Below, piece after piece: positions 15,069-46,342 of a stretch of 64,000 nucleotides of DNA. The translations under genes and the position numbers were made by a program. The notes beneath the pieces were generated by a model that was not told the DNA's origin, did no database searches, and was given only the letters and a program-made list of their open reading frames with translations. Positions within the stretch are counted from its first letter, which is position 1. Each line of letters starts with the position of its first letter. The DNA is from an uncultured Oscillospiraceae bacterium (GTDB lineage: Bacteria > Bacillota > Clostridia > Saccharofermentanales > UBA5734), in NCBI GenBank assembly GCA_964450865.1, contig CAYVHB010000014.1, positions 2,676-66,675 of the forward strand, given 5' to 3'.

Positions 15069-15083
15069 GCTGGAAGTAAGCGG

Positions 15084-29094: not shown

Positions 29095-29235
29095 GGGATA
29101 ACTTCCCTCCGATCCGGTCATGATGTGAATGGGTAATCTGACTTGTCTCATCGGAACGCGACATGATCCGCGTCGTTCCGATCAGGCTGGCTTTTGATGA
29201 ACGGGCAGTCGGTGCCGCGGGCTTGGCGGCTGTGT

Positions 29236-30390: not shown

Positions 30391-30440
30391 AGAATGCCTC
30401 GCTTCGTTTTCATTTTGCTGTCCATTATAACATGTATGTC

Positions 30441-30559
30441 CCTCAATGAATAATCCTTTACTGATATGAAAACAGGTCTTCTCAATGAAAAAATCACAAC
30501 TGATATGAAAACAGGCCTTTCAACGAAAAAATCTGCAACTGATGAAAAAACAAACCTCT
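30441..30559. repeat. Three ~39-40-bp imperfect tandem repeats upstream of aguA
   Basis: Units of TCAA(T/C)GAAaAAATC....ACTGATATGAAAACAGG. No spacers. Confidence 0.85.
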
Positions 30560-30635
30560 TGATCAGAACACCGGTCTTTTCTGGCAAAATAAAACCTGTT
30601 CCATGTCAGAAAGGTTTTACACCCGGTGTCATGAA

Positions 30636-30670
30636 GAGAACCCTGCAAATCCAGGGTTTGCAGGGTTCTC
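30636..30670. terminator. 14-bp perfect hairpin between melA and aguA, probable terminator
   Basis: GAGAACCCTGCAAA-7nt-TTTGCAGGGTTCTC. U-tract is weak. Confidence 0.55.
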
Positions 30671-30817
30671 CGGGTTTTGGGATTCAGAATGGAAGTATAG
30701 TGCCATAACAAGGACAAGGATCACGGACGGAGACGGCTCATAGCATATAGCCCGGAATGGCTCGACATTTTATCAGGAGACTTCAGGCGATCCGGTCTTC
30801 AGGAAGCAGCCTGGTCT

Positions 30818-32143
30818 TCAGCGGAAGGCGGGCAGCATGTCGCCGTGAGCGGCAATGAGTTCGTCGACCATGGCCCGGATGTCGTCGATGGAGAGCTGGG
30901 CGGCTGTGTGCGGATCGAGCATGGCTGCCTGATAGACAAATTCTTTTTTACCGGTGACAGCGGCTTCGATTGTCAGCATCTGCGGATTGATGTTGGTCAT
31001 GTTCATGGCTGCCAGCTGCGGGGGCAGGGCTCCGACATAGCAGGGATGGATGCCCATGCCGTCCACCAGGCAGGGCACCTCGACACAAGCTTCACGGGGC
31101 AGGTTTTCGATCAGGCCGCCACGATTGATGACATTGCCGCCGATTTTGTAAGGCGTATTGTTGACAATGGCTTCCATGATATAAGATGCGTATTCATGAG
31201 AGCGGGTGTGGCTGAGGTTGGGATTGGTGACCAGGTCATTGCGCAGCTTCTCCCAGCGGGCGATCTGTTCGACACAGCGGCGGGGATATTCATCGAGCGG
31301 GATGTTGTAGCGTTCAATCAGCTCAGGATAAGCCGGCTTGATGAAATAGGGGTTGTATTCGGCGTTGTGTTCGCTCGATTCGGTGCAGTAATAACCAAAC
31401 TGGTTGATATACTCGAACCGGACCATGTCGGTGTGCTTTTCGCTGCTGTTCTTGGCGCGGGCCCGGCGGCGGATTTCCGGATAGAGGTCATTGCCATCGC
31501 GGTCCCTGATCTCCAGCAGCCAGCCCATGTGATTGATACCGGCGATCAGCTCCTTGCGGTTCTCCAGCTGATCAGCCATGTCCAGTTCCTTGAGCAGATC
31601 GGCCGAACAGACCTGGACGCTGTGGCACAGGCCGACGGTCTTGACCTTGGTATAGCGCTGCATATAGCCGGTCAGCATGGCCATCGGGTTGGTATAATTG
31701 AGGAACCAGGCATCCGGGCAGACTTCCTCGATGTCACGGGCGAAGTCAGCCAGGACCGGGATGGTGCGCAGAGCCCGCATGATGCCGCCGATGCCCAGGG
31801 TGTCGGCGATCGTCTGGCGCAAGCCGAATTTCTTCGGGATCTCAAAGTCGATGATGGTCGCCGGATCATAGCCGCCAACCTGGATGGCATTGACAACAAA
31901 GGTTGCACCACGCAAGGCTTCTTTGCGGTTTTCCACGCCCAGGTAAGCCTGGATCGTGGCCCGGCCCTGATTGACGTTGTTGTTGATGGCCTTGAGCATC
32001 TGGGCCGACTCCTGCAGACGACCGTTATCAATATCGTACAGGGCAATCTGCGCATTGGCGAAAGTTTCTGTTGACAGGCAATCGCCGAGGATATTCTTGG
32101 CGAAGACGGTGCTGCCGGCACCCATAAATGTGATTTTGACCAT
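30818..32143 (-). CDS. melA: NAD+-dependent alpha-galactosidase, glycoside hydrolase family 4
   Basis: KITFMGAGS, QTIADTLGIGG, LNYTNPM, VGLCHSV, AGINHM, ESSEHNAEY. Confidence 0.92.
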   Translation of the reverse strand: MVKITFMGAGSTVFAKNILGDCLSTETFANAQIALYDIDNGRLQESAQMLKAINNNVNQGRATIQAYLGVENRKEALRGATFVVNAIQVGGYDPATIIDFEIPKKFGLRQTIADTLGIGGIMRALRTIPVLADFARDIEEVCPDAWFLNYTNPMAMLTGYMQRYTKVKTVGLCHSVQVCSADLLKELDMADQLENRKELIAGINHMGWLLEIRDRDGNDLYPEIRRRARAKNSSEKHTDMVRFEYINQFGYYCTESSEHNAEYNPYFIKPAYPELIERYNIPLDEYPRRCVEQIARWEKLRNDLVTNPNLSHTRSHEYASYIMEAIVNNTPYKIGGNVINRGGLIENLPREACVEVPCLVDGMGIHPCYVGALPPQLAAMNMTNINPQMLTIEAAVTGKKEFVYQAAMLDPHTAAQLSIDDIRAMVDELIAAHGDMLPAFR

Positions 32144-32464
32144 GTTCGTTCTCCTTGCAGAAATTTTAAAATTTTACTTATATTGCGGATAAGCTGGACT
32201 AAATCAAGGTTTATTGCTGAAAATAATGACCTTATGGACTTGATTATAGCTGTTTATTCGCAGAAATAAATTGATTTAGGGAATCTAAACATGTCATAAT
32301 GTAACCAGGGGTCTCTCATTGATGTAAAGATATCCCGTGGATGTAAGAACTCTTGATGGAAGGTCTCTCATGGATGTGCTGGTTGCCCGGAGCTGCAAAG
32401 GTCATTCATGAACAAAACGGCCGGGCATGGATATCCAGGCTGAATATGCGCCGCGAGAGGACCG

Positions 32465-33283
32465 GTGACCGATGTCATGAACGCTGTGAGTGTTTCAATT
32501 CTGAATCAGCAATTTCACGATCTCAATCCTCTGGTGTGTGGCTGGGAGGATTGTTCACCTGGCCATGGCTGGGGCCCGGCAGCCCGCGATTATTATCTGG
32601 TACACTATATTCAGTCTGGCCGGGGCGTCTTCGAGCGCAAGGGGATACAGGCTCATCTGAGTAGCGGGTCAATCTTTCTGATCCGCCCGGAGGAACTGAC
32701 TTTCTACCAGGCTGACAGCGACGACCCCTGGCATTATGTCTGGATTGGCTTCTCCGGAGCGCGCTGCGCGGAATTGCTGGCCAATACTGCGCTGGCCGAT
32801 GATCGGGCGACCCTTGCCGAGCCTCGCCTGGGCCGGCTTTTTGCCGATATCCGCACCGAAACCGAGCTGCAATCATCCGTTGAGCTGTATTTGTGTGCCC
32901 GTCTCTATGAGTTCTTTGCCTTGCTGCAACGGCCCCGTGACAATCAGCCGGTGAAGAATGAATACGTCCGCCGGGCTGCTGACTATATCAAGGCCAACTA
33001 TGCCCAGCCGGTCAGCATCGAGAGCATGGCCCGCCTGATTGGTATTGATCGCCGCTACCTATGTCGCATTTTTGCCGCCGAAACAGGCCAGACCCCCCGG
33101 GATTACCTGATTCAATACCGCCTGGAGCGTGCTGCCTACTATCTCACTGAACGTGGCTATGCCGTCCAGGATGCTGCGCGCAGTGTCGGCTATGAGGATG
33201 TGTTCAACTTTTCCAAAGCCTTCAAGCGGCACTTCGGGCTGGCGCCGCGGCAATACCGCAACCAGGGCCAGGGCCGGATCTGA
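32465..33283 (+). CDS. AraC family transcriptional regulator (MelR/MsmR-like), divergent from melA
   Basis: AraC_binding cupin (LVHYIQSGRG...FYQAD..DPW.Y.WIGF) plus double HTH (YL.RIF...VGY.DVFNFSKAFK). Confidence 0.92.
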   Translation: MTDVMNAVSVSILNQQFHDLNPLVCGWEDCSPGHGWGPAARDYYLVHYIQSGRGVFERKGIQAHLSSGSIFLIRPEELTFYQADSDDPWHYVWIGFSGARCAELLANTALADDRATLAEPRLGRLFADIRTETELQSSVELYLCARLYEFFALLQRPRDNQPVKNEYVRRAADYIKANYAQPVSIESMARLIGIDRRYLCRIFAAETGQTPRDYLIQYRLERAAYYLTERGYAVQDAARSVGYEDVFNFSKAFKRHFGLAPRQYRNQGQGRI

Positions 33284-33348
33284 AAAGCGGCGGCGATACA
33301 ATCAACAAGATCATTGTCATCTGCTTCGGCTAACAGGAGGATACATCC

Positions 33349-33741
33349 ATGAATTTACCAGACCTGATCGCCCAGACCCGAACCATCCTTGAATACCCTG
33401 GTTATAAGGGAGCCCTGTCCCGCTGCTGGCTGGTTTGCCATGCACCTGTATGCCTGGTCGGTGACCTGCCCGATAATCCGGGGACCGGCATCCATGACGC
33501 CATTGAGATTATCGCGACCCGGATCGTCGAGACTTTCGCGATCGATCCAGCTGATTTGCTGCTGATTGCGGCCGGGTCGGATTCGGCTGGCCAGGGTTCT
33601 TATGCCCGGATCAGCCTGACTCCCGGCGATAATTTCATGCATATTCAGCGCGTGAAATTTATCGGCGCGAGCTTCGAACGCATTGAACCGCAAGCCGTGG
33701 CAATGTTGCTCGGCCTGAATGATGGCGGATCAGGTGACTGA
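33349..33741 (+). CDS. Hypothetical protein
   Basis: Strong RBS AGGAGG, globular composition, DLPDNPGTGIHDAIE motif. Function not recognised. Confidence 0.6.
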   Translation: MNLPDLIAQTRTILEYPGYKGALSRCWLVCHAPVCLVGDLPDNPGTGIHDAIEIIATRIVETFAIDPADLLLIAAGSDSAGQGSYARISLTPGDNFMHIQRVKFIGASFERIEPQAVAMLLGLNDGGSGD

Positions 33742-33760
33742 AGCCCGGGGGAGCCCAGAC

Positions 33761-34507
33761 CTATGCAGCCCGCACTGGCCGGCGTGCCAGCCACAGCCAG
33801 GGCAGATAAAAGACCAGCCAGATCAGCAAGATCAGGCCCAATAATGGCAACAGGTAGCCGGGATTGCCGCACCAGGTTTCGAAAATTGCCAGCGGCGTAT
33901 CAGGCGGTGCGAAACGCAGAAACATGTAATTGCTGCCAAGCAGCTGATTGACCAGGGCTGCAATGCCGGCCAGGCCAGCCAGCAAGCCGAGGCACCGCGG
34001 CAACTGCCGGATATCAGGGCGAAAACCTTCGCCCCAGATCCAGAAGACCGGTATCAGAATGAGCAGGGTATGGGTGGTGATCGATTGCAGGTACTGGAAA
34101 CTGAGCAGCGGATAAGCCCCCCAGTCCGGGGTCAGCAGGGCAGCCAGCGCGCCCGGCATCCCGCAGGCATAGGAAAATTCCTTGAGAAAGCGGCGATTGC
34201 TGAAAACGGCGGCTATCTCAACATACATGGTGACACCGCATAGATGAAGGGGGAGCATTTCGGCTGCCGAGTAGTGGCTGATCAGGGCAGCCCAGAGCCA
34301 GCGGGCCGGCTCAATAACCAGCAGAACCAGCGCCAGCACCTGCATGAGCCGCCGGCGCCGCAATGCCGGCTGATGCCGGTACCAGATGACTGCAAAGACC
34401 ACAACCAGCAGATCAATGAGCAGCCAGGCGAAATGAAGCGGACTGAAATTGGCTGTGCCGACACCTGGCGGCAGCTCGGTCTGGTACATCCAGAAATATC
34501 TGAACAT
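33761..34507 (-). CDS. YwaF / TMEM164 family integral membrane protein
   Basis: FSPLH, LPLHLCG, ALLTPD, HTLL, LGSNYMFL. Confidence 0.85.
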   Translation of the reverse strand: MFRYFWMYQTELPPGVGTANFSPLHFAWLLIDLLVVVFAVIWYRHQPALRRRRLMQVLALVLLVIEPARWLWAALISHYSAAEMLPLHLCGVTMYVEIAAVFSNRRFLKEFSYACGMPGALAALLTPDWGAYPLLSFQYLQSITTHTLLILIPVFWIWGEGFRPDIRQLPRCLGLLAGLAGIAALVNQLLGSNYMFLRFAPPDTPLAIFETWCGNPGYLLPLLGLILLIWLVFYLPWLWLARRPVRAA

Positions 34508-34875
34508 AGAAACGTCCTTTCAAACCGGATCAAGCCGGAATTGCAGTAAATTCATTATAGTTGATTCAGGTACTTTCGCCAACGCTGCCTGGTCATCTCT
34601 TTTTCACGATGACCAGGCACCGCGTTTTCAGGCCCGGAAGCTCTATGCATTTTTTGGATAACTTTGGAAAGCGCACGTTTCAATTGACTTTACTGGTTGG
34701 ATGCCATAAAATAACGATCGTTCGACTAATCATTTAATCAGGCCGGCCGTGACCTGCCAACTGGGCCCGTCAGGTTGGCCAACCGGTTCAGCCGGGACCT
34801 GCATGCAATATTGCCCCACAATGGACCGCCCGGCCAGGCTGGAAATTTTTGGCCTGGCTAACTGACAGGTGGATT

Positions 34876-35589
34876 ATGGAATCAGTAATTGTCTCTTTTT
34901 TTACGATGGGCGCCTTCGATATGCTGGACATTTACGGCTTGACGACGCTCCTGGTGCTGTTGCAGCTCGTCCGCAAGGACTGGCATGTGCTCGTCAAGGT
35001 TATCAGTACCTATGTCGCATATTGGTGGACTGCAATTGCTATTTATTACGGGATCGACAAGATCATCTATCGCCATCTGGCTCATCTGCCACGGACTTAT
35101 CCGACGGAATTTGCCCTGGTCAAGATCGGGCTGGGCGTCCTGTCACTCATTCTGGCCGTTGTGCTGGGAATCCGGGTTGTGCGCAACTGGCGCCATCTCG
35201 ACAATGATCTGAGTAAAGTTATTTTCATCAAATCAGTTCATCCGGTTTTTCTTGCCATATTTGGTGTCTGGTCAGTCTGGACGAATATCCCGGTTCTTTG
35301 GCCGCTGTTCAGCTTCCTCTCGGTGCTGATTCCAATGCGGCCGTCGTTTGTTCAGGTCGTGCTGGTCCTGGCCGTATTCACCTTTTTTTCCATTGTACCG
35401 CAGCTGGCGGTCTATCTGCTCTATCGCCGCCTGGAGGCTGACCGCTTTGCCAAAGTGATGGGCCGCATGAAATTCTGGCTGTCCCGCGCACTCCTGATCC
35501 TGATACCGCTCTTCTTTTTCGCGGGAGGCATCTGGATTCTGGCCGGCGGTTTTGCCCATTTTCAGAACGGGGGACCGCCACCAGCCTGA
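34876..35589 (+). CDS. GAP/Sap (SfLAP)-like six-TM membrane protein
   Basis: Hydrophobicity pattern plus motifs GAFDMLD, IKSVHP, WPLFSFLSVL, FFSIVPQL resembling Firmicute GAP-family proteins. Confidence 0.55.
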   Translation: MESVIVSFFTMGAFDMLDIYGLTTLLVLLQLVRKDWHVLVKVISTYVAYWWTAIAIYYGIDKIIYRHLAHLPRTYPTEFALVKIGLGVLSLILAVVLGIRVVRNWRHLDNDLSKVIFIKSVHPVFLAIFGVWSVWTNIPVLWPLFSFLSVLIPMRPSFVQVVLVLAVFTFFSIVPQLAVYLLYRRLEADRFAKVMGRMKFWLSRALLILIPLFFFAGGIWILAGGFAHFQNGGPPPA

Positions 35590-35613
35590 CCGCCTCCCAG
35601 GCTATGCAAAAGT

Positions 35614-35650
35614 AAAACAGCCCGGCCCGTTGATGGCTGAGCTGTTTTTT
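35614..35650. terminator. Bidirectional terminator between convergent genes
   Basis: AAAACAGC...GCTGTTTT. Confidence 0.65.
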
Positions 35651-35713
35651 AATGTTTTTTTAATTGAGCGGGCCTGACTGTTAACGGAATCCGCTGATGG
35701 TGAAGTCCGGCGA

Positions 35714-37099
35714 TTACAACGACAGGTCGAGCAGCGTTTTCAGCTTGATTTCCGGATTAGCCAAGCCAGCACGCATGACTTTGACAATATAGCGGTGCAT
35801 GTTGGCGACGGTTTCCTCAGAGATAATCTTGTCGAGGTATTCATAATAACAGCGCAAGGCGCCCGTCCCATCGCCGTCCATGACGGTCAGATACATTGAA
35901 TTGCTGGCCGCGCCGGTACTGTGCCAGCGGGTCGAGGCTTTCATCCCGTTTTCAAAGGTCATCGGCACCGGCTGGAAGGTGACTGAAAGACCGTGATAGC
36001 CCTCGTTACTCTTGATATTCCAGCGCTTTTTGCTCAGAGCGATGAATTCGAACGGGCTGATATCGGCATGGCGGTAGATGCTGTTTTGCTTCTCCAGCAT
36101 CAGGTTGCAGGCATCCTTGAAGCTGATGTCCTCGTCCATGATGGTCCGATAGGACAAGAAGTGAACGCGCGTGCCGCCGGACAGCTTCTCCTCCAGGGTC
36201 CCGCGCCGGGCCACGACATTATAAAAGCTGACGTCTTTTTCACGGTTGTTGACCTTGGCCAGGAAGGTGCGGACAGCCAGCAGGAAAAGCGCCTGCGGCG
36301 TCGGTATATTGTTGGCCACGCAGTATTCGCGCATGGCATCCACATCATCCTTGCTGATCATCTGCACATAATGACTGGCAGTTGTCCGCAGATAAAAACA
36401 GTTGCTGGCCCGCTGATTGGGATTCTTGGTCTTCTTGCGATATTTTTCGAGCATAATGGAACCGTTGACATGGGTAAATATCGGCTCGCTGACATCATTG
36501 ATCTCCTTTTGCCAGAATTCGAGGTCCTTCTGATGCCGGTCCGATGTCATATAGGCAATGTCCTTTTGCAGGCAAGACTCCGCGCTGCGTGGTGGCTTGG
36601 GCATAGGTGTATTGTTCTGCAGGGCAAAGTAGATCTCCATGATGTCTTTATAAAACATACTGATGGCCCAGGAATCCATGACCAGGTGGCTGATGCAGGA
36701 AAACATGCCGCTTTTGCCGCCGGGCGCCTTGACGATATAGATCTTGGCCATCGGCGTATCATAGATCTTGAGCGCCCTGGAGCCGACCTTGCGGAAAAAC
36801 GCCTCCATGACTTCCGGAGACTTGTTGCTGAAATCAATGATTTCCAGCGTCAGGACCTGGCGGTCAGTGAAATACTGGACCTTTTGTTTGTCCTGTCTGG
36901 TGAGGCGGATTCCGAACGCGTCATTGCGCTGAACCGCCTCAGCAGCGGCCTTTTTCAACAATTCAAGGTCCAGCAAGGTATCAACAAAAAACGAAGTGGG
37001 AATGTTGATGACCTGTTTATGAAGGGAGTACTGCTGGGCCAGGAACATGGCCAGCTGGGATGGTGTTAACGGGTAATACTTTCTGTTTTGGGTATCCAT
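35714..37099 (-). CDS. Stand-alone NRPS-type condensation-domain protein
   Basis: YPLTPSQ, QRNDAFGIRL, active-site motif SHLVMDS (HHxxxDG variant). RBS AGGAGG before ATG 37099. Confidence 0.82.
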   Translation of the reverse strand: MDTQNRKYYPLTPSQLAMFLAQQYSLHKQVINIPTSFFVDTLLDLELLKKAAAEAVQRNDAFGIRLTRQDKQKVQYFTDRQVLTLEIIDFSNKSPEVMEAFFRKVGSRALKIYDTPMAKIYIVKAPGGKSGMFSCISHLVMDSWAISMFYKDIMEIYFALQNNTPMPKPPRSAESCLQKDIAYMTSDRHQKDLEFWQKEINDVSEPIFTHVNGSIMLEKYRKKTKNPNQRASNCFYLRTTASHYVQMISKDDVDAMREYCVANNIPTPQALFLLAVRTFLAKVNNREKDVSFYNVVARRGTLEEKLSGGTRVHFLSYRTIMDEDISFKDACNLMLEKQNSIYRHADISPFEFIALSKKRWNIKSNEGYHGLSVTFQPVPMTFENGMKASTRWHSTGAASNSMYLTVMDGDGTGALRCYYEYLDKIISEETVANMHRYIVKVMRAGLANPEIKLKTLLDLSL

Positions 37100-37174
37100 C
37101 GGACAAATACCTCCTCGGGTAAAATGAAAATGCCTATATTCAGCATTCGGGCGCGAAAGCAGCAGATGCGATAT

Positions 37175-37211
37175 GTGAGCCCCCGACATATGACACGTGA
37201 GCCCCGGACAT
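37175..37211. promoter_or_regulatory. 15-bp direct repeat (14/15) with 22-bp period in the divergent intergenic region; putative regulator site
   Basis: GTGAGCCCCCGACAT at 37175 and GTGAGCCCCGGACAT at 37197. Confidence 0.45.
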
Positions 37212-37404
37212 GATATAGCCTATAATATCTGCTGATTTCTTGCAAGCCTGAAGCCGTCCTCTGATGCAATTAAATTGCAAATATCCAGAAAATGTGTGAT
37301 AATATTTCCGCAATTGGTCAAGTTGCATAGAAAAAGCATTTGTGTCTATATAACACCACTGATTGCCAGGCCCGGTTGAGAGCCTGGTTAAAAGGAGCCA
37401 CTTT

Positions 37405-38805
37405 ATGTCGATGAAGCAATTGGGATTTTTAAAGTGTTGTCAGCTGGTTCTCAAAGCCAACAAAATGTCGCGTGAGCAGCTTGAAGCGCTCCAGCAGCAG
37501 CGCCTGCGCGAAATAATCGCCCACGCGCGGGCTCACAGTCCGTATTATCGGGAGCTTTATAAAGACCTGGGTGATAACCCCGATTTCCAGTCTTTGCCAA
37601 TCACGACCAAACAGGGCCTGATGCAGAACTTTGACCGCTGGCTGACCGATCCGTCGATTACGCTCGACAAGGTCAGGACCTTCATGGCCAATGATGACAA
37701 CATCGGCCGGGAGTTCGAAGGTAAAGGTATCCTGAATTATACCTCGGGCTCGACAGGTACCCAGTGTGTGGTTCTCTATGATCATACGACTTCCAATATT
37801 ACCTATGCCTTGAACTACTTCCGCTCTTTTGCCCATTCGCCTGATTTTCTCAAGGCCATTTTCAAAGGGGCCAAATACACGGCGATTGTCGACGATGGTT
37901 TTTATGTCGAATACACTGAATTTCGCAGCCAGGTCCTGTCATCACCTTATAATAAGCATCGCACGCAATTCATTGATGTGGCCGAGTCAACAGCGGATAT
38001 TGTCAGGAAGCTGAATACCTTCCAGCCCAATTTCATCGGCGCCTATCCCAGTGTCATGGAATTGCTGCTGCCGGAAATCCAGGCGGGCCGTCTCAGGATC
38101 AAACCGAATATTGTCGTCATTGGCGGTGAGAATTCAAGTCCGAAATTACGTGATGAACTGCGCGATGCCCTGAAATGCTCGGTCTTCAATACCTATGGTG
38201 CCACCGAAGGCGGAATGATGGCTTTCGAATGCTCTGAAGGCAATTCGCATATCAATATTGACTGGGTCGTGCTTGAGGCCGTCGATGAGGAATACCGGCC
38301 GGTACCGCCGGGTGTCCGGTCGCACAAGATCCTGATAACAAATTTGTCCAACTCCCTGCAGCCCTTCATCCGCTATGAAGTGACCGACCGGGTTATCATG
38401 GGTGGCGACCGCTGCAAGTGCGGCTCACCCTTGCCCTACCTGATCGTAGAAGGCCGGACCGATGATATCCTGGAGTTTGAAGGCAAGAACGGGCCGGTGA
38501 AAATCATTCCGATGAATCTGGTGCCCGAGGCCAAATACGAGGGGCTGTTGCGCTACCAGCTCGTGCAAAAGGATCCCTATACCCTGGAGATGCGCCTGGA
38601 CTGTGTCGACGCGGCCAGCCGGGATTATGCGTTCCAGGAAGCCCGCAAAATGATTCTGCACCATCTGCAGATCAATGGAGTCAGCAACGTCACCGTCTAT
38701 CTCGCTGACATCAAGCCCCAGCTCGTTACCAAAAGCGGCAAATTCAAGTCAGTCTTCAAGGAGCGAAAGCTGGCTGAGCCCGTCATCACCGACGAGAATG
38801 ACTGA
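37405..38805 (+). CDS. Phenylacetate-CoA ligase (PaaK)-like adenylate-forming enzyme
   Basis: HARAHSPYYRELY, LPITTK, YTSGSTG, YGATE, PFIRYEVTD, EGRTDD. Confidence 0.85.
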   Translation: MSMKQLGFLKCCQLVLKANKMSREQLEALQQQRLREIIAHARAHSPYYRELYKDLGDNPDFQSLPITTKQGLMQNFDRWLTDPSITLDKVRTFMANDDNIGREFEGKGILNYTSGSTGTQCVVLYDHTTSNITYALNYFRSFAHSPDFLKAIFKGAKYTAIVDDGFYVEYTEFRSQVLSSPYNKHRTQFIDVAESTADIVRKLNTFQPNFIGAYPSVMELLLPEIQAGRLRIKPNIVVIGGENSSPKLRDELRDALKCSVFNTYGATEGGMMAFECSEGNSHINIDWVVLEAVDEEYRPVPPGVRSHKILITNLSNSLQPFIRYEVTDRVIMGGDRCKCGSPLPYLIVEGRTDDILEFEGKNGPVKIIPMNLVPEAKYEGLLRYQLVQKDPYTLEMRLDCVDAASRDYAFQEARKMILHHLQINGVSNVTVYLADIKPQLVTKSGKFKSVFKERKLAEPVITDEND

Positions 38806-38927
38806 ACCGGCTTCTGGCTGACATGGCCCGGCCCGGAGAGCCTGCCGCAGCCGTGCCGGTGCCAGGCAGGGCCGGTCCCGGCTACCTGTCAGCTGAGTGG
38901 TTGTCCTGCTTATCCGGATGTGGTTTT

Positions 38928-40295
38928 TCAATTCATGAAAAGCCGCAGCCATTTCATTTTTCCGGTATAGGGCGGGTAGCGAACCGGTATATCGAGCAGA
39001 TTGGACTTGATCAGGATGCTTTTCTGACGGGAAAAAGTACTGAAACTGGCCTGGCCATGGTAAGTACCGATCCCGCTGGCCCCGATGCCACCGAATGGCA
39101 GATGGGGATTGGCCAGATGGACGACCGTGTCATTGATGCAGCCCCCGCCGAATGGCATTTGCCGGATGATCTGGTCCTGGCGCTTTCGATCGTTACTGAA
39201 ATAATAGAATGCCAGCGGTTTGGGCCGCTCCCTGATCTGCGTGAGGGCACTGTCCAGGTCGGTATATTCAATCAGCGGCAGGAGCGGTCCGAAGATTTCT
39301 TCCTGCATCAGGGTACTGTCCCAGCTGACCGGATCGAAAACAGTTGGGGCGATCTGCCGGGTCTGTTCATTGCAGGCGCCGCCAATGGCAACCGGATTGG
39401 CGGCCATCAGGCGGGCCAGGCGGGCGAAGTGCTTTTCGTTGATGATTTTGGGGAAACTGGCATTGGCTGCCGGTGACGGGCCGTAGAACTGGTGGATGTA
39501 TTTGGCCAGGGACTGCAGCAGTGCGGCCTTGACCCTGGTTTGGACCACCAGGTAATCGGGGGCCACACAAGTCTGGCCGGCATTGAGGAATTTACCCCAG
39601 ACGATGCGGCGGGCTGCCAGGTCGATGTCGGCCGTTTCGTCGACGATACAGGGGCTTTTGCCCCCCAGCTCCAGCGTCACCGGAGTCAGGTGACGGGCAG
39701 CCGATTCCATAACCAGGCGGCCGACGGCCTCACTGCCAGTGAAAAAGATATAGTCAAAGCGTTCGGCGAGCAGCGAGCTGTTGGCCTGGCGGCCACCCAG
39801 CACCGTTGTGATGTAGTCAGCCGGGAAACATTCGCTGACGATACGGGCGATGACAATGGAGGTCTGCCGGGCATAATCGGATGGTTTGACAATGGCACAA
39901 TTGCCGGCGGCAATCGCTCCGATCAGCGGAGCCATGGCCAGCTGGAACGGATAATTCCAGGGAGAGAGGATCAGGACGACCCCGTAAGGTTCAGCATAGA
40001 TGCGGCTGCTTGACAGCACGTGGGCCAGCGGGGTCGGAACCGGGCGCGGCCGGGCCCAGCGGGAAAGATGGCGTAGCGCGTGCTTGATTTCTTCACGAAT
40101 AAAGCCGATTTCGGTGGCATATGATTCAAAGGCATCCTTGTTCAGGTCGTGCTGCAAGGCGGCCGTAATGGCCGCTTCGTTGCTGATAATGGCCGCCCGC
40201 AGTTTTTGCAGCATTGTCCGGCGAAAGGCAAGGTCCCGGGTCACCCCGGTCAGGAAAAAAGCCTGCTGTTTCTCGATCATTTTTGCAATTTCCAT
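38928..40295 (-). CDS. NAD(P)-dependent aldehyde dehydrogenase (ALDH3-like)
   Basis: SPWNYP, FTGS, LELGGKSP, NAGQTCVAPD, EEIFGP, PFGGIGASG. Confidence 0.93.
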   Translation of the reverse strand: MEIAKMIEKQQAFFLTGVTRDLAFRRTMLQKLRAAIISNEAAITAALQHDLNKDAFESYATEIGFIREEIKHALRHLSRWARPRPVPTPLAHVLSSSRIYAEPYGVVLILSPWNYPFQLAMAPLIGAIAAGNCAIVKPSDYARQTSIVIARIVSECFPADYITTVLGGRQANSSLLAERFDYIFFTGSEAVGRLVMESAARHLTPVTLELGGKSPCIVDETADIDLAARRIVWGKFLNAGQTCVAPDYLVVQTRVKAALLQSLAKYIHQFYGPSPAANASFPKIINEKHFARLARLMAANPVAIGGACNEQTRQIAPTVFDPVSWDSTLMQEEIFGPLLPLIEYTDLDSALTQIRERPKPLAFYYFSNDRKRQDQIIRQMPFGGGCINDTVVHLANPHLPFGGIGASGIGTYHGQASFSTFSRQKSILIKSNLLDIPVRYPPYTGKMKWLRLFMN

Positions 40296-40472
40296 GGCGG
40301 ACTCTTTCTGGCCGCAAAGCTGGCCGGGCAATTGATTTGGCGAATATGGGATCCTGACACGCAATCAGCCAATCTCATCTGCGCTGCGAGTCCCCTGCGA
40401 TTCAGTCAATCTCACGCGACTGGCGAATTACTTGAGCACTGCGAATTCGCGCCTTTTGCACGAATCCGGCTG

Positions 40473-41678
40473 TCACGGCTGAAGCTGCTCGAAAAGCTGC
40501 CGGAACTCGCCGCGCTGGATAATGCGGGGGACCGGATAGAACGGATTGGCCTCGCGGAAGCTGCGCTCAACCAGTAGCGGCAGATCGGCAGCCTGGATCT
40601 GGACAATTTTATCCGGGATCTGCAGCAGCGCGTTGAGTTTGCGGATTGAATCGAGAAATAAGGCAGCCTTGTGCGGTGTACTGTCACCGGCACCGCCCAG
40701 TCCGACATGGTCTGCCAGCTCGGCCAGTGGCCGGCTGATGTCTTCGCCATAGAAGGCCAGGACATGCGGCAGCAGCACCGCATTTGCCAGCCCGTGGGGG
40801 ACCGCGTACAGGCCGCCGAGGGCGTGGGCCATGGCATGCACATTGCCAACATAGGCCCGGGTAAAGGCCCGGCCGGCCAGGTAGGCGGCCTGCTGCATGG
40901 CAGCCCGGGCCTGCAGGTCCTGGCCATCATCCCAGGCCCGCGGCAAATGCTGAAATATCAGGGCGCAGGCTTCCTTCGCCCAGCGCCGGGTCTGCGGGGT
41001 GTTGGACTGGCCAATATAGGCCTCAACAGCGTGGGTCAGCGCGTCAAGCCCGGTTGTGGCTGTCAGGTGAGGCGGCAGGCCGGTGGTCAGGCCCGGTTCA
41101 TGGACAGCAACGTGCGGCAGCAGGGATATATCCGTGATCGCGTACTTTTCATGGGACTGTGCATCCATGATCACTGCCACGATCGTGCTCTCGCTGCCGG
41201 TACCGGCGGTCGTCGGCACGACAAATAACGGTGGAATGAAGCCCAGGACTTTCAACAGGCCCCGCATCCGGGCGATTGGCTTGCGCGGCCGGGCCAGGCG
41301 GGCGGCAACGCCCTTGGCACAATCGATCGGCGAACCGCCGCCGGCGGCGATAATGCCCTGGCAGCTTTCCTGGCGGTAAATCAGCAGGGCCGCCTCGATG
41401 TTTTCGATCGTGGGATTGGGATGGGTCTGGTCATAGATCGCGCAGCGGATCCCGGCCTGGTCCAGATCCGCCTGCAGGCCTGTCAGCAAGCCGAGCGCCG
41501 TGACCCCCTTGTCCGTGACAAGCAGGACCGACTGGATCCGGCGCTGGCTGATCAAGAGCGGCAGCTGCCGCAGGCTGCCTGGCCCGGACAGGATAACCTG
41601 CCGTCGCCAGGGCAGCAAGTACGCCACCAGGCGCATCACCGCCTGATAGACCCGACAATAGATTTCAAACCAGAACAT
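40473..41678 (-). CDS. Iron-containing alcohol dehydrogenase
   Basis: GGGSPID, VPTTAGTGSE, DALTHAVE, HAMAH, HG. Alternative start 41699. Confidence 0.92.
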   Translation of the reverse strand: MFWFEIYCRVYQAVMRLVAYLLPWRRQVILSGPGSLRQLPLLISQRRIQSVLLVTDKGVTALGLLTGLQADLDQAGIRCAIYDQTHPNPTIENIEAALLIYRQESCQGIIAAGGGSPIDCAKGVAARLARPRKPIARMRGLLKVLGFIPPLFVVPTTAGTGSESTIVAVIMDAQSHEKYAITDISLLPHVAVHEPGLTTGLPPHLTATTGLDALTHAVEAYIGQSNTPQTRRWAKEACALIFQHLPRAWDDGQDLQARAAMQQAAYLAGRAFTRAYVGNVHAMAHALGGLYAVPHGLANAVLLPHVLAFYGEDISRPLAELADHVGLGGAGDSTPHKAALFLDSIRKLNALLQIPDKIVQIQAADLPLLVERSFREANPFYPVPRIIQRGEFRQLFEQLQP

Positions 41679-41971
41679 AAATCCTGCCCCCCACGCCATT
41701 TCTTTTATATTATCACGCCTGCCTGATAAAATAATGCAGATTCATGTAAAAATCCGGATCGGCGAAACGGTCATGGCATTCGGCGAAATATTTTTTTATA
41801 ATGTAATATAATCACGGAACAAACGCTTACGGAAAGGGTAAGATAGCAACAGTCAGCCAGACGTGATCCGGATTCAACCCCGATACAAACTGGTTCCATA
41901 CACCGGTCCGGCCAGGCTGACGTTGCAGGACGACCAGCCCCAACACGGGATTCCATATTCAGGAGGATGTT

Positions 41972-42304
41972 ATGTTCGGATTATTCGGAAAAAGAGCGCA
42001 CTCGATGTCAATGGCAGAAGCCCAGAAGGAACTGGCCAAGAGCCAGGACATCATTTTGCTGGATGTCAGGACCAGGGAAGAACACAAGCAAGGCCACATC
42101 AAGGGCAGCATCAATGTGCCGCTTGACCAGGTGCCGGTCCAGCTGGCCAAGAAAGTTCCCGACAAGAGCGCCCGTATTTTCGTCTATTGCCTCAGTGGCG
42201 GCCGCAGCAGCCAGGCCTGCAGCTGGATGGTCAGCAATGGCTATGAAAACGTCACCAATATCGGCGGCATTTCCAGCTGGCCGGGATCAGTCGTCAGGGG
42301 GTAA
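41972..42304 (+). CDS. Rhodanese-like domain protein
   Basis: LLDVRT.EE...HIKGSINVP...YCLSGGRS...NIGGI..W. Confidence 0.92.
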   Translation: MFGLFGKRAHSMSMAEAQKELAKSQDIILLDVRTREEHKQGHIKGSINVPLDQVPVQLAKKVPDKSARIFVYCLSGGRSSQACSWMVSNGYENVTNIGGISSWPGSVVRG

Positions 42305-43992
42305 TGAACATGAAAGCTATTATCGTTGGTGGTGTCGCCGGTGGCGCCGGTACAGCCGCCCGCTTGCGCCGCAATAATGAAACCGCGGAAATCATCATGC
42401 TGGAGAAGGGCCCGTACATTTCTTTTGCCAACTGTGGCCTGCCCTATTACATCGGCGGCGTGATTACCGACAAAGACGAACTGCAGCTGCAAACACCGGA
42501 AAGTTTCAACGCCCGCTTCAATGTTGATGTCCGGGTTTTGCACGAAGTCACCGCGATTGATACTGCCGCCAGGACTGTGACGGTCCAGGACCTGCGCAAC
42601 CAGACAAGCTATACCGAATCCTATGACGTCCTGGTTCTCTCGCCGGGGGCCCGGCCGATCCTGCCGCCGATCAGCGGCTACAACCTGCCTCATGTCTTCA
42701 CGCTGCGGACGATCCCTGACACCTACAAGATCAAGGATTTCATCACTGAAAAGCAGCCCAGACGGGCCGCGATCATCGGCAGTGGTTACATCGGTGTGGA
42801 AATGGCGGAAAATCTCCACCACGCCGGCCTGCAGGTGGCGATGATTGAAGCGCAGAATCATGTGATCGGCTCACTGGACGCGGATATGGCCGCCCTGGTG
42901 CACAATGAAATCCGCCAAAACAGCGTTGAGCTGTACCTGGAAAGTAAAGTCGTCGCCATCGATCAAACCGGCCTGACCCTTGAGGATGGGCGGCGGATCG
43001 AGGCCGACCTGGTCCTGATGAGCATCGGTGTACAGCCGGAAACCGGCTTCATCAAGGGCAGCGGCATTGAGCTCGGCCCGCGCGGTGAACTGCTGATCGA
43101 TGACCAGATGAAGACCAACATCCCGGATGTCTACGCCCTTGGCGATGCCGCGGTCATCACGAACTTTGTCTCCGGCAAAAAGATGATCATTCCGCTGGCT
43201 TCGCCGGCCAACAAGCAGGCCCGCCTGGTTGCTGATATCATCAGTGGCAAGAATGTCCGCTACACCGGTACCCAGGGCACGGCCATCGCCCAGATCTTCG
43301 GCCAGACTGTCGCCGTAACCGGTGAAAGCGAAACCAGCCTGCAGCGCAATGGTGTTGCCTATCGCAAATCCTACACCTTCAGCGGCTCCAATGCCGGTTA
43401 TTATCCCGGGGCTAAAACCATGACCATCAAGCTGCTGTATACCGATGATGGTCATCTGCTTGGCGCCCAGATTGTTGGCCCGAAGGGCGTCGACAAACGG
43501 ATGGATGTACTGGCCACGGCGATTCGCGCCAGGATGACCGTCTATGATCTGCAAGAACTTGAGCTGGCCTACGCCCCGCCGTTCTCATCGGCCAAGGATC
43601 CGGTCAATATGGCCGGCTATGTAGCCGCCAATCTCCTCGAGGGCAAATCCAGGCTGTTCTATGTTGAGGACCTGGCCAAAGTGACCGATGCTGACCTGCT
43701 GCTTGACGTCCGGACGCCGGGTGAATTCCAGGCCGGTCATCTGCCCGGGGCGGTCAACATCCCGGTGGACAGCTTGCGCCAGCGCCTGGCTGAGATCGAT
43801 CCCGGCAAGAAGGTCTATATCTATTGCGGCATTGGCCTGCGCGGCTATATTGCCCAGCAGATCCTGACTGCCCATGGGATCGACTCGCTCAACCTGAGCG
43901 GTGGTTATACCCTGTGGAAAGCCATTGACCGTGACCGCCAGGCCCAGGCCGCCGCCGCCGTTGATTGCACTCACTGCGGCGCGCCGAAGTAA
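42304..43992 (+). CDS. CoA-disulfide/persulfide reductase family FAD oxidoreductase with C-terminal rhodanese
   Basis: GGVAGG, SFANCGLPY, GSGYIG, YAPPFS, LDVR...YCGIGLRG. Confidence 0.92.
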   Translation: MNMKAIIVGGVAGGAGTAARLRRNNETAEIIMLEKGPYISFANCGLPYYIGGVITDKDELQLQTPESFNARFNVDVRVLHEVTAIDTAARTVTVQDLRNQTSYTESYDVLVLSPGARPILPPISGYNLPHVFTLRTIPDTYKIKDFITEKQPRRAAIIGSGYIGVEMAENLHHAGLQVAMIEAQNHVIGSLDADMAALVHNEIRQNSVELYLESKVVAIDQTGLTLEDGRRIEADLVLMSIGVQPETGFIKGSGIELGPRGELLIDDQMKTNIPDVYALGDAAVITNFVSGKKMIIPLASPANKQARLVADIISGKNVRYTGTQGTAIAQIFGQTVAVTGESETSLQRNGVAYRKSYTFSGSNAGYYPGAKTMTIKLLYTDDGHLLGAQIVGPKGVDKRMDVLATAIRARMTVYDLQELELAYAPPFSSAKDPVNMAGYVAANLLEGKSRLFYVEDLAKVTDADLLLDVRTPGEFQAGHLPGAVNIPVDSLRQRLAEIDPGKKVYIYCGIGLRGYIAQQILTAHGIDSLNLSGGYTLWKAIDRDRQAQAAAAVDCTHCGAPK

Positions 43993-44090
43993 TCGGCCGG
44001 AAATCTGCATACCTGCGGAATTTCATATCGCAATTCCCCGGCGGATACGCCCCCGCGAACTGCCCCTTGATCGAGCTGAACGTTTCTCAC

Positions 44091-44128
44091 AAGCCCGGCT
44101 GCAGCCAACCTGCAGGCCGGGCTTTTTT
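44091..44128 (+). terminator. Rho-independent terminator
   Basis: AAGCCCGGC TGCAG...CTGCA GCCGGGCTT plus T6. Confidence 0.8.
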
Positions 44129-44340
44129 GGCGTGAGGATCTTCAGCGCCGGGAATTTCACAGACTGGCGTTTTTCCGCAGCCGTAAATTCTCGCGAGCCT
44201 GATTATTCACGGGTCGTGATTTCTCGCGCCCGTTTTTGATGGTCATTATTCAAGCTATTCTCTGGCCGGTTTTTGATAATCTTTCGATCATCAAAACAAC
44301 ATTGCGCAAATCCATTGAATGTTGACCGGATTTCCGCTAG

Positions 44341-44352
44341 ATTGTCGACAAT
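44341..44352. promoter_or_regulatory. 12-bp perfect palindrome upstream of the symporter operon; putative operator
   Basis: ATTGTCGACAAT, about 90 bp before ATG 44444. Confidence 0.4.
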
Positions 44353-44443
44353 ACCATTATTAAAGGCTAAAAATATCCGGTTTTGTCTAAGTATTCACAA
44401 GGTAGCAGTAGAACGGTAGAGCCACTGGAAAGGCGGTAGAAGC

Positions 44444-44626
44444 ATGGTACTGGGAATTCCTGATTTCTGGATCTGGAGCGCGTTTTTGCTTTGCATCGGT
44501 AGCGCGGTTGCCTGCGTTGTGTATGGCATCGTGAACTGGAACAAAGGGTCTGACGATGAAAGCAAGCAAATCAACGAGGAGGTACGCTGGGAGGTCACGG
44601 AAAAGGAAGTCGAAGCCAACCTTTGA
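44444..44626 (+). CDS. Small single-TM symporter accessory protein
   Basis: MVLGIPDFWIWSAFLLCIGSAVACVVYGIVNWNKG, immediately upstream of an SSS gene. Confidence 0.75.
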   Translation: MVLGIPDFWIWSAFLLCIGSAVACVVYGIVNWNKGSDDESKQINEEVRWEVTEKEVEANL

Positions 44627-44722
44627 TGGAGCGGAAGGTCGACAGGCTCTCGTTGTATGCGGACAGATCTCATTGCTGTTCAGGCGTGCAGCAGGTGCAG
44701 ACTGTGTAGAATGGAGAATTTG

Positions 44723-46342
44723 ATGTTACTACCAATTGTTGCCTCGGTTATTTATCTGTTTATCCTGATCTGGCTGGGCTATATCGGCTATCGTGGCACG
44801 AAGACAGCCCGTGATTATATGCTGGCCGGTCGCCAGATTCACCCGATGATCATGGCATTGTCCTATGGGGCCACGTTTATCAGTACATCAGCCATCGTCG
44901 GATTTGGCGGCAATGCCGGCCTGTTTGGTTTTTCCCTGCTCTGGCTGACCTTCCTTAATATCCTGGTTGGCGTTTTTATTGCTTTTATTGTCTTTGGCAA
45001 GCGGACCCGCAAAATGGGCCATAATGTTGATGCCCATACCTTTGCCGAATTGCTGGGTGTGCGCTTCCAGTCCAGGTTTATCCAGGGCTTTTCTGCCGCG
45101 GTCGTTTTCATTTTCATGCCCGTTTATGCCGCTGCCGTGCTTAAGGGCGGCGTGGCCTTCATCGCAACCCAATTCAATGTCGATTTTAATGTGGCGCTGC
45201 TGTTCTTTACGATGATTGTGGCTGTCTACGTCCTGATGGGCGGGATGAAGGGCGTCATGTACACCGATGCCTTCCAGGGCATGATTATGTTTGCCGGGAT
45301 GCTCTTCCTGCTGATCTATACCTACACCAGGCTTGGCGGCGTCACATCTGCCCATACGGCCCTGACCAACATGATGCAGGATCCGGGCGTCCAGGCACAG
45401 ACCGCCAAGCTGACCGCCAATGGCTTCAAAGGCTGGACTTCAATGCCGACGTTTGGTTCGCCCTACTGGTGGACGGTCGTCACTTCCGTGGTTATGGGCG
45501 TCGGTATTGGCGTGCTGGCTCAGCCACAACTGGCCGTGCGTTTCATGACTGTCAAGAGCAACCGGGAATTGAACCGGGCTGTGGCCTCCGGTGGCGTGTT
45601 TATCCTGATGATGACTGGCGTGGCCTTTGTGGTCGGTGGTCTGTCCAATGTCTACTTCTTCCAGCAAAGCGGCTCGACAGCGATGGTTGCCGCCAAAGGC
45701 GTAATCGACAACATCATTCCGCTGTTCCTTAAAGGCTTCATGCCCGACTGGTTCAGCACGGTCTTCCTGCTGACGCTGATGTCGGCGGCGATGTCAACGC
45801 TAAGTTCCCAGTATCATGTAGTTGGCACATCGATTGGCCGCGACCTGTTCGAAAAGAGCCTGAATCTGCGGGGCAACTCGGTATTGATCACCCGAATTGG
45901 TATCCTGTTCTCAATCCTGGTCAGTGCCGTGCTGGCCTATCTGGGCAACCAGCTCAAGACCGATATCGGCGTTATTGCCCAGGCTACCTCGATTTTCTTC
46001 GGTATTTGTGCCGCGGCGTTCCTGCCGACCTATATTGGCGCACTCTACTTCCGCCGCCTGACACGCAAAGCCGCCATTGCCAGTATCCTGACCGGATCGC
46101 TGGCCAGCTTCTTCTGGATCTTCTTTATTCATGCCAAAAACGCCTCAACCATCGGCCTGTGCCAGCTGCTGACCGGCAAACCGCACTTGCTGGCCGGGAC
46201 GGCCCTCGTCAAGCTGTCAATGGTCGATGCGGTTATTGTTACCTTCCCGCTGGCAGTCCTGGTGATTATCGTCGTTGGCCTGCTCACCCGGCCCGATGTC
46301 GATGCCGGGCACGTTGAGCGCTGCTTCAGCGGCATCCGCTGA
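44723..46342 (+). CDS. Sodium:solute symporter (SSS family)
   Basis: YMLAGR, ATFISTSAIVG, GGMKGVMYTD.FQG, QPQL..RF, SAAMST. RBS GGAG before ATG 44723. Confidence 0.92.
   Translation: MLLPIVASVIYLFILIWLGYIGYRGTKTARDYMLAGRQIHPMIMALSYGATFISTSAIVGFGGNAGLFGFSLLWLTFLNILVGVFIAFIVFGKRTRKMGHNVDAHTFAELLGVRFQSRFIQGFSAAVVFIFMPVYAAAVLKGGVAFIATQFNVDFNVALLFFTMIVAVYVLMGGMKGVMYTDAFQGMIMFAGMLFLLIYTYTRLGGVTSAHTALTNMMQDPGVQAQTAKLTANGFKGWTSMPTFGSPYWWTVVTSVVMGVGIGVLAQPQLAVRFMTVKSNRELNRAVASGGVFILMMTGVAFVVGGLSNVYFFQQSGSTAMVAAKGVIDNIIPLFLKGFMPDWFSTVFLLTLMSAAMSTLSSQYHVVGTSIGRDLFEKSLNLRGNSVLITRIGILFSILVSAVLAYLGNQLKTDIGVIAQATSIFFGICAAAFLPTYIGALYFRRLTRKAAIASILTGSLASFFWIFFIHAKNASTIGLCQLLTGKPHLLAGTALVKLSMVDAVIVTFPLAVLVIIVVGLLTRPDVDAGHVERCFSGIR

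Follow-up and report, generated by a model that had tools for sequence, protein, structure and literature searches.

How a stand-alone condensation (C) enzyme obtains its acyl donor, and with which partners it works, is the question raised by a locus in the window analysed here, a 64,000-nucleotide stretch of DNA from an uncultured Oscillospiraceae bacterium (assembly GCA_964450865.1, contig CAYVHB010000014.1, positions 2,676 to 66,675 of the forward strand). The original prediction had joined six genes of this locus, encoding a YwaF-family protein, a GAP-family membrane protein, the C enzyme, a PaaK-like ligase, an aldehyde dehydrogenase (ALDH) and an iron-containing alcohol dehydrogenase (Fe-ADH), into one carrier-protein-free biosynthetic cluster. 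The questions to be answered are thus (i) which of these genes belong together; (ii) whether the system does without an acyl carrier protein (ACP); and (iii) what it may produce.

Judged by gene context, the C enzyme, the ligase and the membrane protein form a genuine recurring module of functionally linked genes, found on the independent contigs L041, L039 and L006, whereas the Fe-ADH/ALDH pair and the YwaF gene accompany them only in the syntenic L006/L007, so that the predicted single cluster holds for the trio only (L-numbers denote comparison loci, several of which are short metagenomic contigs, and G-numbers the genomes of relatives; C-numbers are contigs of the same genome as the window, whose own contig is C14, unless assigned to G034). 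With moderate confidence, we propose that this trio is a satellite module for fatty-acid-amide (FAA)-type acyl-amide synthesis and export, which would use an acyl carrier provided in trans from contig C28, and that the Fe-ADH, ALDH and YwaF genes lie outside it.

A recurring trio of genes

All six open reading frames (ORFs) lie where they had been predicted, and their family assignments hold in Pfam and NCBIfam searches. The genes of the trio, and the spacer between two of them, are the following:

34876-35589, plus strand: divergent Gap/Sap (SfLAP, PF11139)-like membrane protein, 237 aa (assigned by family profile; no direct Pfam or NCBIfam match)
35714-37099, minus strand: putative stand-alone FAA-type C enzyme (OaaC-like N-acyl amide synthase), 461 aa (PF00668, E = 1.5e-36; motif SHLVMDS)
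37100-37404, no strand: divergent intergenic region between the C and ligase genes, with a 20-nt direct repeat (sequence reading)
37405-38805, plus strand: predicted PaaK-like/F390-synthetase-related adenylate-forming ligase, 466 aa (PF00501, E = 2.1e-11; motifs)

To judge by the lengths of homologues, translation probably begins at ATG codons within the ORFs, at 37099 for the C enzyme, 37405 for the ligase, 34876 for the membrane protein and 40295 for the ALDH; at their longest, the ORFs extend to 37189 for the C enzyme and to 40364 for the ALDH, and begin at TTG codons for the ligase (37363) and the membrane protein (34849; 246 aa).

A PF00550 scan found no PP-binding domain anywhere on the window's contig, and a phmmer search of all stop-to-stop frames of at least 45 aa between 33200 and 42400 with four divergent carrier proteins yielded nothing credible as a hidden carrier gene. 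The sole carrier match below 0.01 (10.9 bits) lay within a rhodanese ORF and was rejected. Neither a thioesterase (TE) domain nor a canonical adenylation (A) domain of a non-ribosomal peptide synthetase (NRPS) was found at the locus. Both the predicted arrangement, a stand-alone C domain with its catalytic His and Asp that diverges from a PaaK-like ligase, and the predicted lack of peptidyl or acyl carrier, A and TE domains are therefore borne out.

The ligase gene is found in C-gene contexts in several other places. L006 contains the orthologous locus of the window trio (ligase 68% identical); in L039 the ligase gene (60%) overlaps a C gene by 4 bp and the gene for the membrane protein comes next; and in L041 the ligase gene directly follows an FAA-type C gene, with identities of 42% for the C enzyme, 48% for the ligase and 46% for the membrane protein. 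Further paralogues of the ligase (50–53% identity) close the main operon described below in C22 and L040, and in G034 (locus L029; 38%) the ligase gene abuts the MacB gene. The ligase is not an obligatory partner: it is present in 4 of 60 relatives.

The condensation enzyme is a member of the FAA clade

PF00668 spans residues 36–486 of the C enzyme ORF. In a phmmer search of the PDB, the enzyme matched OaaC (12KH) over its full length (E = 5.5e-58, query residues 6–456 to chain residues 5–461), followed at a large distance by PvdL (1.8e-11). OaaC of Coprococcus eutactus is the free-standing condensation enzyme of the FAA pathway of gut Clostridia, which condenses a fatty acyl group bound to an ACP with a free amine; it requires acyl-ACP and yielded no product from oleoyl-CoA (PMC13310621). 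The FAA C clade, characterised by a (D/H)HxxxDS motif, is the sister of the starter C domains (PMC13310621). By analogy with OaaC, the window enzyme would catalyse amide formation from an acyl-ACP and a small free amine.

The SHLVMDS motif of the window enzyme retains the His, the Asp and the trailing Ser of the xHxxxDS pattern, while its first position is S, versus D or H in the OaaC clade. Among 119 homologues of the C enzyme, in which the His and Asp of the motif (S/N/C)HxxxD(S) are conserved, the first position is S in 70, N in 36 and C in 10, and the final position is S in 106. From these sequences, S, N or C at the first position looks like the signature of a distinct sub-clade. A maximum-likelihood tree placed the window enzyme inside a well-supported clade of operon-linked C genes, the branching within which was largely unresolved.

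A single loading and export operon elsewhere in the genome

In this family, the main operon has a fixed order of genes: a fatty-acyl-AMP-ligase (FAAL)-like enzyme (~570 aa), a 76-aa carrier protein, a phosphopantetheinyl transferase (PPTase), an ABC ATPase and a double-FtsX MacB-type permease (~1080 aa). One or two C genes directly follow this FAAL-ACP-PPTase-ABC-MacB series in L008, L010, L011, L013, L015, L016 and L040, and the hosts of operon-linked C genes comprise Proteiniclasticum species, metagenome-assembled genomes (MAGs) named 'Eubacteriales' and 'Clostridiaceae', and metagenomic contigs. In one MAG (L009:1963-11374), six tandem FAA-type C paralogues of 457 aa each directly follow the gene for the MacB-type permease, which suggests a diversified acceptor or donor specificity, and in L029 (G034) the C gene lies at the FAAL end of the operon and is oriented divergently from it. 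A scan of genome contigs for the C enzyme with back-translated patterns returned only 7 loci, these patterns being narrow.

The genome from which the window derives encodes this operon at C28:52-6722 on the minus strand, with proteins 51–84% identical to those of L008. Contig C28 ends 51 bp past the MacB stop codon, and contig C22 starts 127 bp before two tandem C paralogues. No direct sequence overlap was found between the two contig ends; they map collinearly onto L040, 70 bp apart, with nucleotide identities of 78% and ~70%, and the order in L040 (MacB-C-C-GDSL-GT4-AMP-binding-PaaK-like) is also that of C22, which encodes, in C22:1-9333, two C enzymes, a GDSL lipase, a GT4 glycosyltransferase, an AMP-binding enzyme and the PaaK-like paralogue. 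This synteny with L040 indicates that the C28 operon probably continues into C22.

The genome thus contains six FAA-type C paralogues (the window gene on C14, two on C22 and one each on C5, C13 and C59) but only one loading and export operon. The six dispersed paralogues probably differ in substrate, and the FAA family appears able to expand into multiple copies apparently served by one such operon. Since the carrier gene missing at the locus is found on C28, 'carrier-free' holds for the window and not for the organism; as the headline of the original prediction it is probably an artefact of viewing one window.

The membrane protein is a divergent Gap/Sap relative found beside or near C genes

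The membrane protein of 237 aa has approximately six hydrophobic segments, with a polar stretch at about residues 98–114 between segments 3 and 4. It had no match in Pfam or NCBIfam, and none to PF11139 (gathering cut-off, 35 bits) even at E ≤ 10. Within its family, however, 3 of 12 members match PF11139 (best E = 2.9e-6), and a paralogue on contig C11 of the same genome reaches 25.2 bits, below the cut-off, over model positions 2–211. A search of 1.84 billion representatives with the family profile retrieved 140 proteins at E ≤ 1e-3, and 88 of the 89 full-length proteins among them match PF11139 (best E = 1.4e-29). The hhalign comparison of A1 with A2, made for the Gap/Sap homology of the membrane protein, gave a probability of 100% and is partly circular. 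A Foldseek search of the PDB with an AlphaFold2 model of moderate confidence (pLDDT 70.6) gave no match at E ≤ 0.001 and was uninformative. By the profile evidence, the protein belongs to a divergent subfamily of Gap/Sap (PF11139), and the assignment to the GAP family made in the original prediction stands.

Members of this family are scarce, forming 12 clusters among 5.8 billion proteins, with three copies in the genome under study and none in 398 other class-level genomes. Every copy with readable neighbours (C14, C5, C11, L006, L025, L027, L028, L039 and L041) lies beside, or within ~2 kb of, a stand-alone C gene. The partner is an FAA-type C enzyme in the window, L006 and L041, and a C enzyme with an HHxxxDG motif in C5 and C11 of the same genome and in L025, L027, L028 and L039. 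We regard the membrane protein as a putative partner of the C enzyme in export or 'addressing'.

The HHxxxDG-type enzymes (C11:53782-58615 and C5:171-4287, and the four L-loci just named) are a second stand-alone C subfamily, with the canonical motif and ~21% identity to the window enzyme. Besides the Gap/Sap-like protein, their cassette often encodes a 79–89-aa carrier-like protein with a WDS[MI]AH motif, which the PF00550 scan missed, an SDR and a 465-aa AMP-binding enzyme. We know of no description of this HHxxxDG-type C/Gap-Sap-like cassette.

The ligase

The best NCBIfam matches of the ligase are TIGR02304, 'F390 synthetase-related' (111.5 bits; cut-off, 251.9), and the DVU_1553 family; its scores for both PaaK equivalogs are far below the cut-offs (TIGR02155, 50.6 bits against 646.3; NF041878, 66.8 bits against 700). 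Its best PDB match is the phenylacetate-CoA ligase 4R1L (E = 1.7e-20), and it contains the motifs TSGSTG, YGATEGG, GRTDD and SGKFK. The ligase is a member of the PaaK superfamily only.

These relationships also allow for a distinctly improbable reading in which the ligase itself forms an amide or ester bond in an ATP-dependent manner, as is described for NatL2, BagE and DdaG, while the C enzyme works conventionally with acyl-ACP; the ligase would then build the amine or acid substrate, or further derivatise the carboxylate of an N-acyl amino-acid product. Matches to BagE/FevW and DdaG in NCBIfam, and to the PaaK-like ligase 6SIW and AjiA1 in the PDB, point in this direction. So does gene context, as members of the subfamily follow an NRPS and MatE gene (G044; in G051 by tblastn only) and occur inside complete FAAL-ACP operons, positions that suggest an accessory rather than a loading role. 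Against this, the BagE/FevW, DdaG and similar matches lie far below the family cut-offs, and a bond-forming ligase is compatible with, rather than exclusive of, the trans-acting carrier that we favour.

The ligase subfamily was observed in several further contexts. Its genes stand alongside genes for EamA (DMT) transporters in L029:4472-6589, L042:9001-11162 and L043:8047-10382; EamA is divided between two half-size ORFs in both L029 and L042, and the L043 ligase is broken into pieces of 361 and 99 aa. In G044 (L038:6836-15817 and L031:7817-11008), ligase homologues of 36–38% identity follow a 2993-aa NRPS of the organisation A-T-C-A-T-C-A-T-R, which has a PPTase gene before it and a MatE-HATPase fusion after it; the same AMP-binding pattern upstream of the ligase was seen in G051 (L032) by tblastn only. 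On contig C3 of the genome under study (C3:115257-119818), a PaaK-like/F390-synthetase-related gene, whose product is 29% identical to the window ligase, lies ~0.5 kb upstream of, and on the same strand as, a gene for a bifunctional AdhE-type aldehyde/alcohol dehydrogenase, so that ligase and dehydrogenase genes adjoin at a second place in this genome. Finally, genes for a DltA/DltC-like adenylating enzyme and carrier immediately follow the trio in L039, and their homologues are the first two genes of a dlt-like operon at C6:50638-55169, assigned by homology and by eye, which encodes a DltA-like 506-aa enzyme, a 75-aa carrier, an MBOAT-like and a DltD-like protein.

Source of the acyl donor

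In the mechanism that we propose, the OaaC-like C enzyme would use a small free amine, or a similar nucleophile, as the acceptor for an activated acyl group and so yield an N-acyl amide or related ester. The ACP of the single FAAL-ACP-PPTase-ABC-MacB operon on C28 would carry the acyl donor in trans. The PaaK-like ligase, encoded divergently from the C gene, would activate a carboxylic acid that is used or made by the C reaction, and may serve as (i) an alternative loader of the C28 ACP; (ii) a CoA ligase; or (iii) a tailoring amide ligase. Translocation or 'addressing' of the lipophilic product may be assisted by the Gap/Sap-like six-helix protein; an ABC/MacB pump is missing from the satellite locus itself. 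The Fe-ADH and ALDH would be an independent alcohol-to-acid oxidation pair, and YwaF an unrelated neighbour. FAA-type clusters of Enterocloster are reported to produce N-oleoylputrescine (bioRxiv 10.64898/2026.08.24.746719), which makes putrescine a candidate acceptor.

Several points weigh against this proposal. The window enzyme is only ~38% identical to OaaC, as estimated by eye from the alignment, and has S instead of D or H at the first position of the motif. Starter C domains, the sister group of FAA C domains, usually take acyl-CoA as the donor (PMC13310621). The window, L006 and L041 all lack a carrier gene in or beside the trio, which would be an uncommon arrangement for an enzyme that depends on an ACP, and the use of the C28 ACP in trans is itself something that we infer. 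Furthermore, the translational coupling of the ligase gene to the C gene in L039 suggests that the ligase feeds the C enzyme directly, and the Fe-ADH/ALDH genes are retained next to the ligase gene in L006, so that a supply role for this pair is possible.

Some of these points favour a system without any carrier, in which the ligase would provide an acyl-CoA or acyl-adenylate, the C enzyme would acylate an amine or alcohol in the manner of PapA or of starter C domains, and the Gap/Sap-like protein would export the product, a reading that we consider rather unlikely. The recurrence of the trio at three loci without an adjacent carrier gene, the 4-bp overlap in L039 and the sister relationship to domains that typically take acyl-CoA all argue for it. 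PaaK-family enzymes are, moreover, typically CoA ligases, and mycobacterial sulfolipid synthesis provides an established case of a Gap/Sap protein working with C-fold PapA acyltransferases (PMC3318749). Conversely, OaaC gave no product with oleoyl-CoA, and the genome has a dedicated FAAL-ACP-PPTase module. In G034 and in C22/L040, a complete operon with its own ACP gene contains or adjoins a ligase paralogue, which thus does not replace FAAL and ACP there; the DltA/DltC-like enzyme and carrier adjoin the trio in L039; and the ligase also occurs, together with EamA transporters, where the region examined contains no C gene (L042 and L043). The acyl-CoA donor of the original prediction is accordingly weakened by the behaviour of OaaC and by the C28 operon, and keeps in its favour the lack of a carrier gene adjacent to the trio.

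That the trio is a self-contained machine, whose ligase passes acyl-CoA or acyl-adenylate directly to an FAA-type (or HHxxxDG-type) C enzyme and whose Gap/Sap-like protein exports the lipid, we judge unlikely. If true, the trio would be the Bacillota counterpart of the mycobacterial PapA-Sap/Gap system and would contain the first ACP-free enzyme of the FAA clade. The locus offers a concrete test case for whether an FAA-clade C enzyme accepts a non-ACP donor.

The oxidation pair and YwaF are neighbours of the trio

The remaining genes of the locus are:

33761-34507, minus strand: TMEM164/YwaF-family integral membrane protein, of a putative acyltransferase family (PF14808, E = 3.1e-46, 158.1 bits; TIGR02206, 116.7 bits)
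38928-40295, minus strand: class-3-type NAD(P)+ ALDH, MdlD-like (PF00171, E = 8.6e-83; MdlD model)
40473-41699, minus strand: group III Fe-ADH (PF00465 and PF25137)

The ALDH contains the catalytic motifs ELGGKS and GQTCVAP, with the catalytic Cys and Glu, and scores 457.4 bits against the MdlD model NF045701, below the cut-off of 550 bits. It also has a weak match to LuxC (E = 3.9e-4); acid reduction of the LuxC/LuxE type was rejected, the protein being a conventional class-3-type ALDH. The Fe-ADH reaches no NCBIfam equivalog cut-off. Its gene lies upstream of the ALDH gene, and the two overlap by 7 bp in L006. YwaF scores above both curated cut-offs (25 bits for PF14808 and 75 bits for TIGR02206).

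The original prediction had arranged all six genes into a linear pathway, in which Fe-ADH and ALDH would convert an alcohol via an aldehyde to an acid, which the ligase would activate and the C enzyme would turn into an amide or ester for export by the Gap-like protein; YwaF, taken here as an acyltransferase, would be an accessory. All six genes are indeed contiguous in the window and in L006/L007, with protein identities of 52–71%, and the class-3/MdlD-like ALDH could supply acids for the PaaK-like ligase. Class-3/MdlD-type ALDHs handle aryl as well as fatty aldehydes. The second PaaK-like gene just upstream of adhE on C3 also fits such a pathway. However, the synteny with L006/L007 extends well beyond the six genes, to an AraC/GH4 flank on one side and a rhodanese/CoA-disulfide-reductase flank on the other, and retention of the six genes there is therefore uninformative as to function. 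In G034, the Fe-ADH and ALDH genes are found on its contig C10 beside the housekeeping genes asnS, gatA and gatB, while the FAA operon and the ligase gene are on its contig C52. The pair is absent from the loci examined in L039, L040, L041 and C22, and of 60 relatives, 18 have an ALDH orthologue, in most cases without the C enzyme. Moreover, the six genes form at least four transcription units of mixed orientation, a feature that had been recognised from the start as weakening a single pathway. Taken as a whole, the six-gene pathway is very improbable.

The Fe-ADH and ALDH genes are thus most likely a separate two-gene unit that neighbours the module, and the predicted oxidative front end falls away with them. 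Likewise, YwaF lies next to the module only in the window and its syntenic relative L006/L007 and is absent from the other C/ligase/membrane-protein loci examined; its proposed role as an accessory is not upheld, and its linkage to the module is unsupported.

Comparison with known systems

The FAA NRPS-like pathway of gut Clostridia is represented by OaaA/OaaACP/OaaC of C. eutactus (Chang et al. 2021, cited in PMC13310621). Like OaaC, the window enzyme is free-standing and ~460 aa long, aligns over the full length of its homologue, and has a non-canonical xHxxxDS motif with both His and Asp; as in that pathway, the same genome encodes a stand-alone FAAL-like enzyme, a 76-aa carrier and a PPTase. 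In contrast to the Oaa pathway, the window C gene is detached from the ligase and ACP genes, and, in contrast to the available descriptions of FAA clusters, it is paired with a PaaK-like ligase and a Gap/Sap-like membrane protein. The family to which it belongs differs from OaaC in having S, N or C rather than D or H at the first motif position. It differs also from the ebf/ecf FAA clusters of Enterocloster, which include an SCP2-like protein and a hydrolase (PMC10871352), in that its main operon includes an ABC/MacB pump together with as many as six C paralogues.

In mycobacteria, sulfolipid-1 involves PapA1/PapA2, MmpL8 and the Sap protein Rv3821, and glycopeptidolipid involves Gap; Sap, with 237 aa and six helices, is needed together with MmpL8 for sulfolipid transport (PMC3318749). 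The window resembles these systems in that the gene for a condensation-fold acyltransferase lies next to that for a Gap/Sap (PF11139, LysE-superfamily) protein of ~237 aa and six helices. Since the trio is linked and its membrane protein is of the Gap/Sap family, the analogy to PapA and Sap drawn in the original prediction is apt. Unlike the mycobacterial systems, however, the window is from a member of the Bacillota and its locus has no MmpL, polyketide synthase (PKS) or FadD partner; its membrane protein, taken on its own, is below the PF11139 threshold; and its C enzyme is of the FAA type, with no PapA among its PDB sequence matches.

The starter (lipoinitiation) C domains of lipopeptide NRPSs, the clade nearest to FAA C enzymes (PMC13310621), likewise use an acyl donor, and many take acyl-CoA. 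Whereas they are parts of multidomain proteins and acylate a carrier-bound amino acid, the window enzyme stands alone and has no gene for an acceptor carrier in its vicinity. The ligase, in turn, shares its fold family and adenylation motifs with PaaK/F390-synthetase-related enzymes (4R1L/2Y27, 6SIW, AjiA1 6WUQ, BagE/FevW and DdaG). Several of these relatives act in natural-product pathways; the window ligase is below every equivalog cut-off.

Our literature search did not find a module of dispersed C paralogues with a PaaK-like ligase and a Gap/Sap-like partner, and found nothing relevant on Gap-like/condensation pairings outside Actinobacteria. The C enzyme is a new member of the known FAA clade, and the C-ligase-Gap/Sap trio around it is a new combination, with two accessories, the PaaK-like ligase and the Gap/Sap-like membrane protein, that are new relative to the available descriptions of FAA clusters. 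Some of the N-acyl amides made by FAA-type C enzymes act on human receptors and on gut inflammation (PMC13310621, PMC10871352, bioRxiv 10.64898/2026.08.24.746719). Furthermore, while Sap/Gap proteins have been described in mycobacteria (PMC3318749), the presence of a Bacillota relative beside or near stand-alone C genes suggests that the logic of combining an acyltransferase with a small addressing protein is older or wider than mycobacterial lipid export.

Other features of the locus

The spacer between the C and ligase genes contains a 20-nt direct repeat, at 37170-37189 (GATATGTGAGCCCCCGACAT) and 37192-37211 (GACACGTGAGCCCCGGACAT), with a spacing of 22 bp. This repeat occurs nowhere else in the genome and is not conserved in the corresponding spacer of the orthologous L006 locus; it could be a regulator site. 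No RNA family was matched in an Rfam scan of positions 30000-46000, and a scan for promoters and terminators was not usefully above background.

Two groups of genes for small-molecule enzymes were also seen near the trio. In the window, genes 4–8 kb upstream (28216-30390) encode a carbon-nitrogen hydrolase and a PAD_porph-family deiminase of the agmatine-deiminase type; the functional names of these enzymes, and the agmatine-to-putrescine route that they would constitute, are an inference from their Pfam families. In L006 (positions 13517-15513), the genes for YwaF and AraC are separated by a radical SAM/LAM_C-family (lysine-2,3-aminomutase-type) gene and a 200-aa ORF, neither of which is present in the window; if the assignment holds, the aminomutase-type enzyme could be a source of a beta-amino-acid acceptor.

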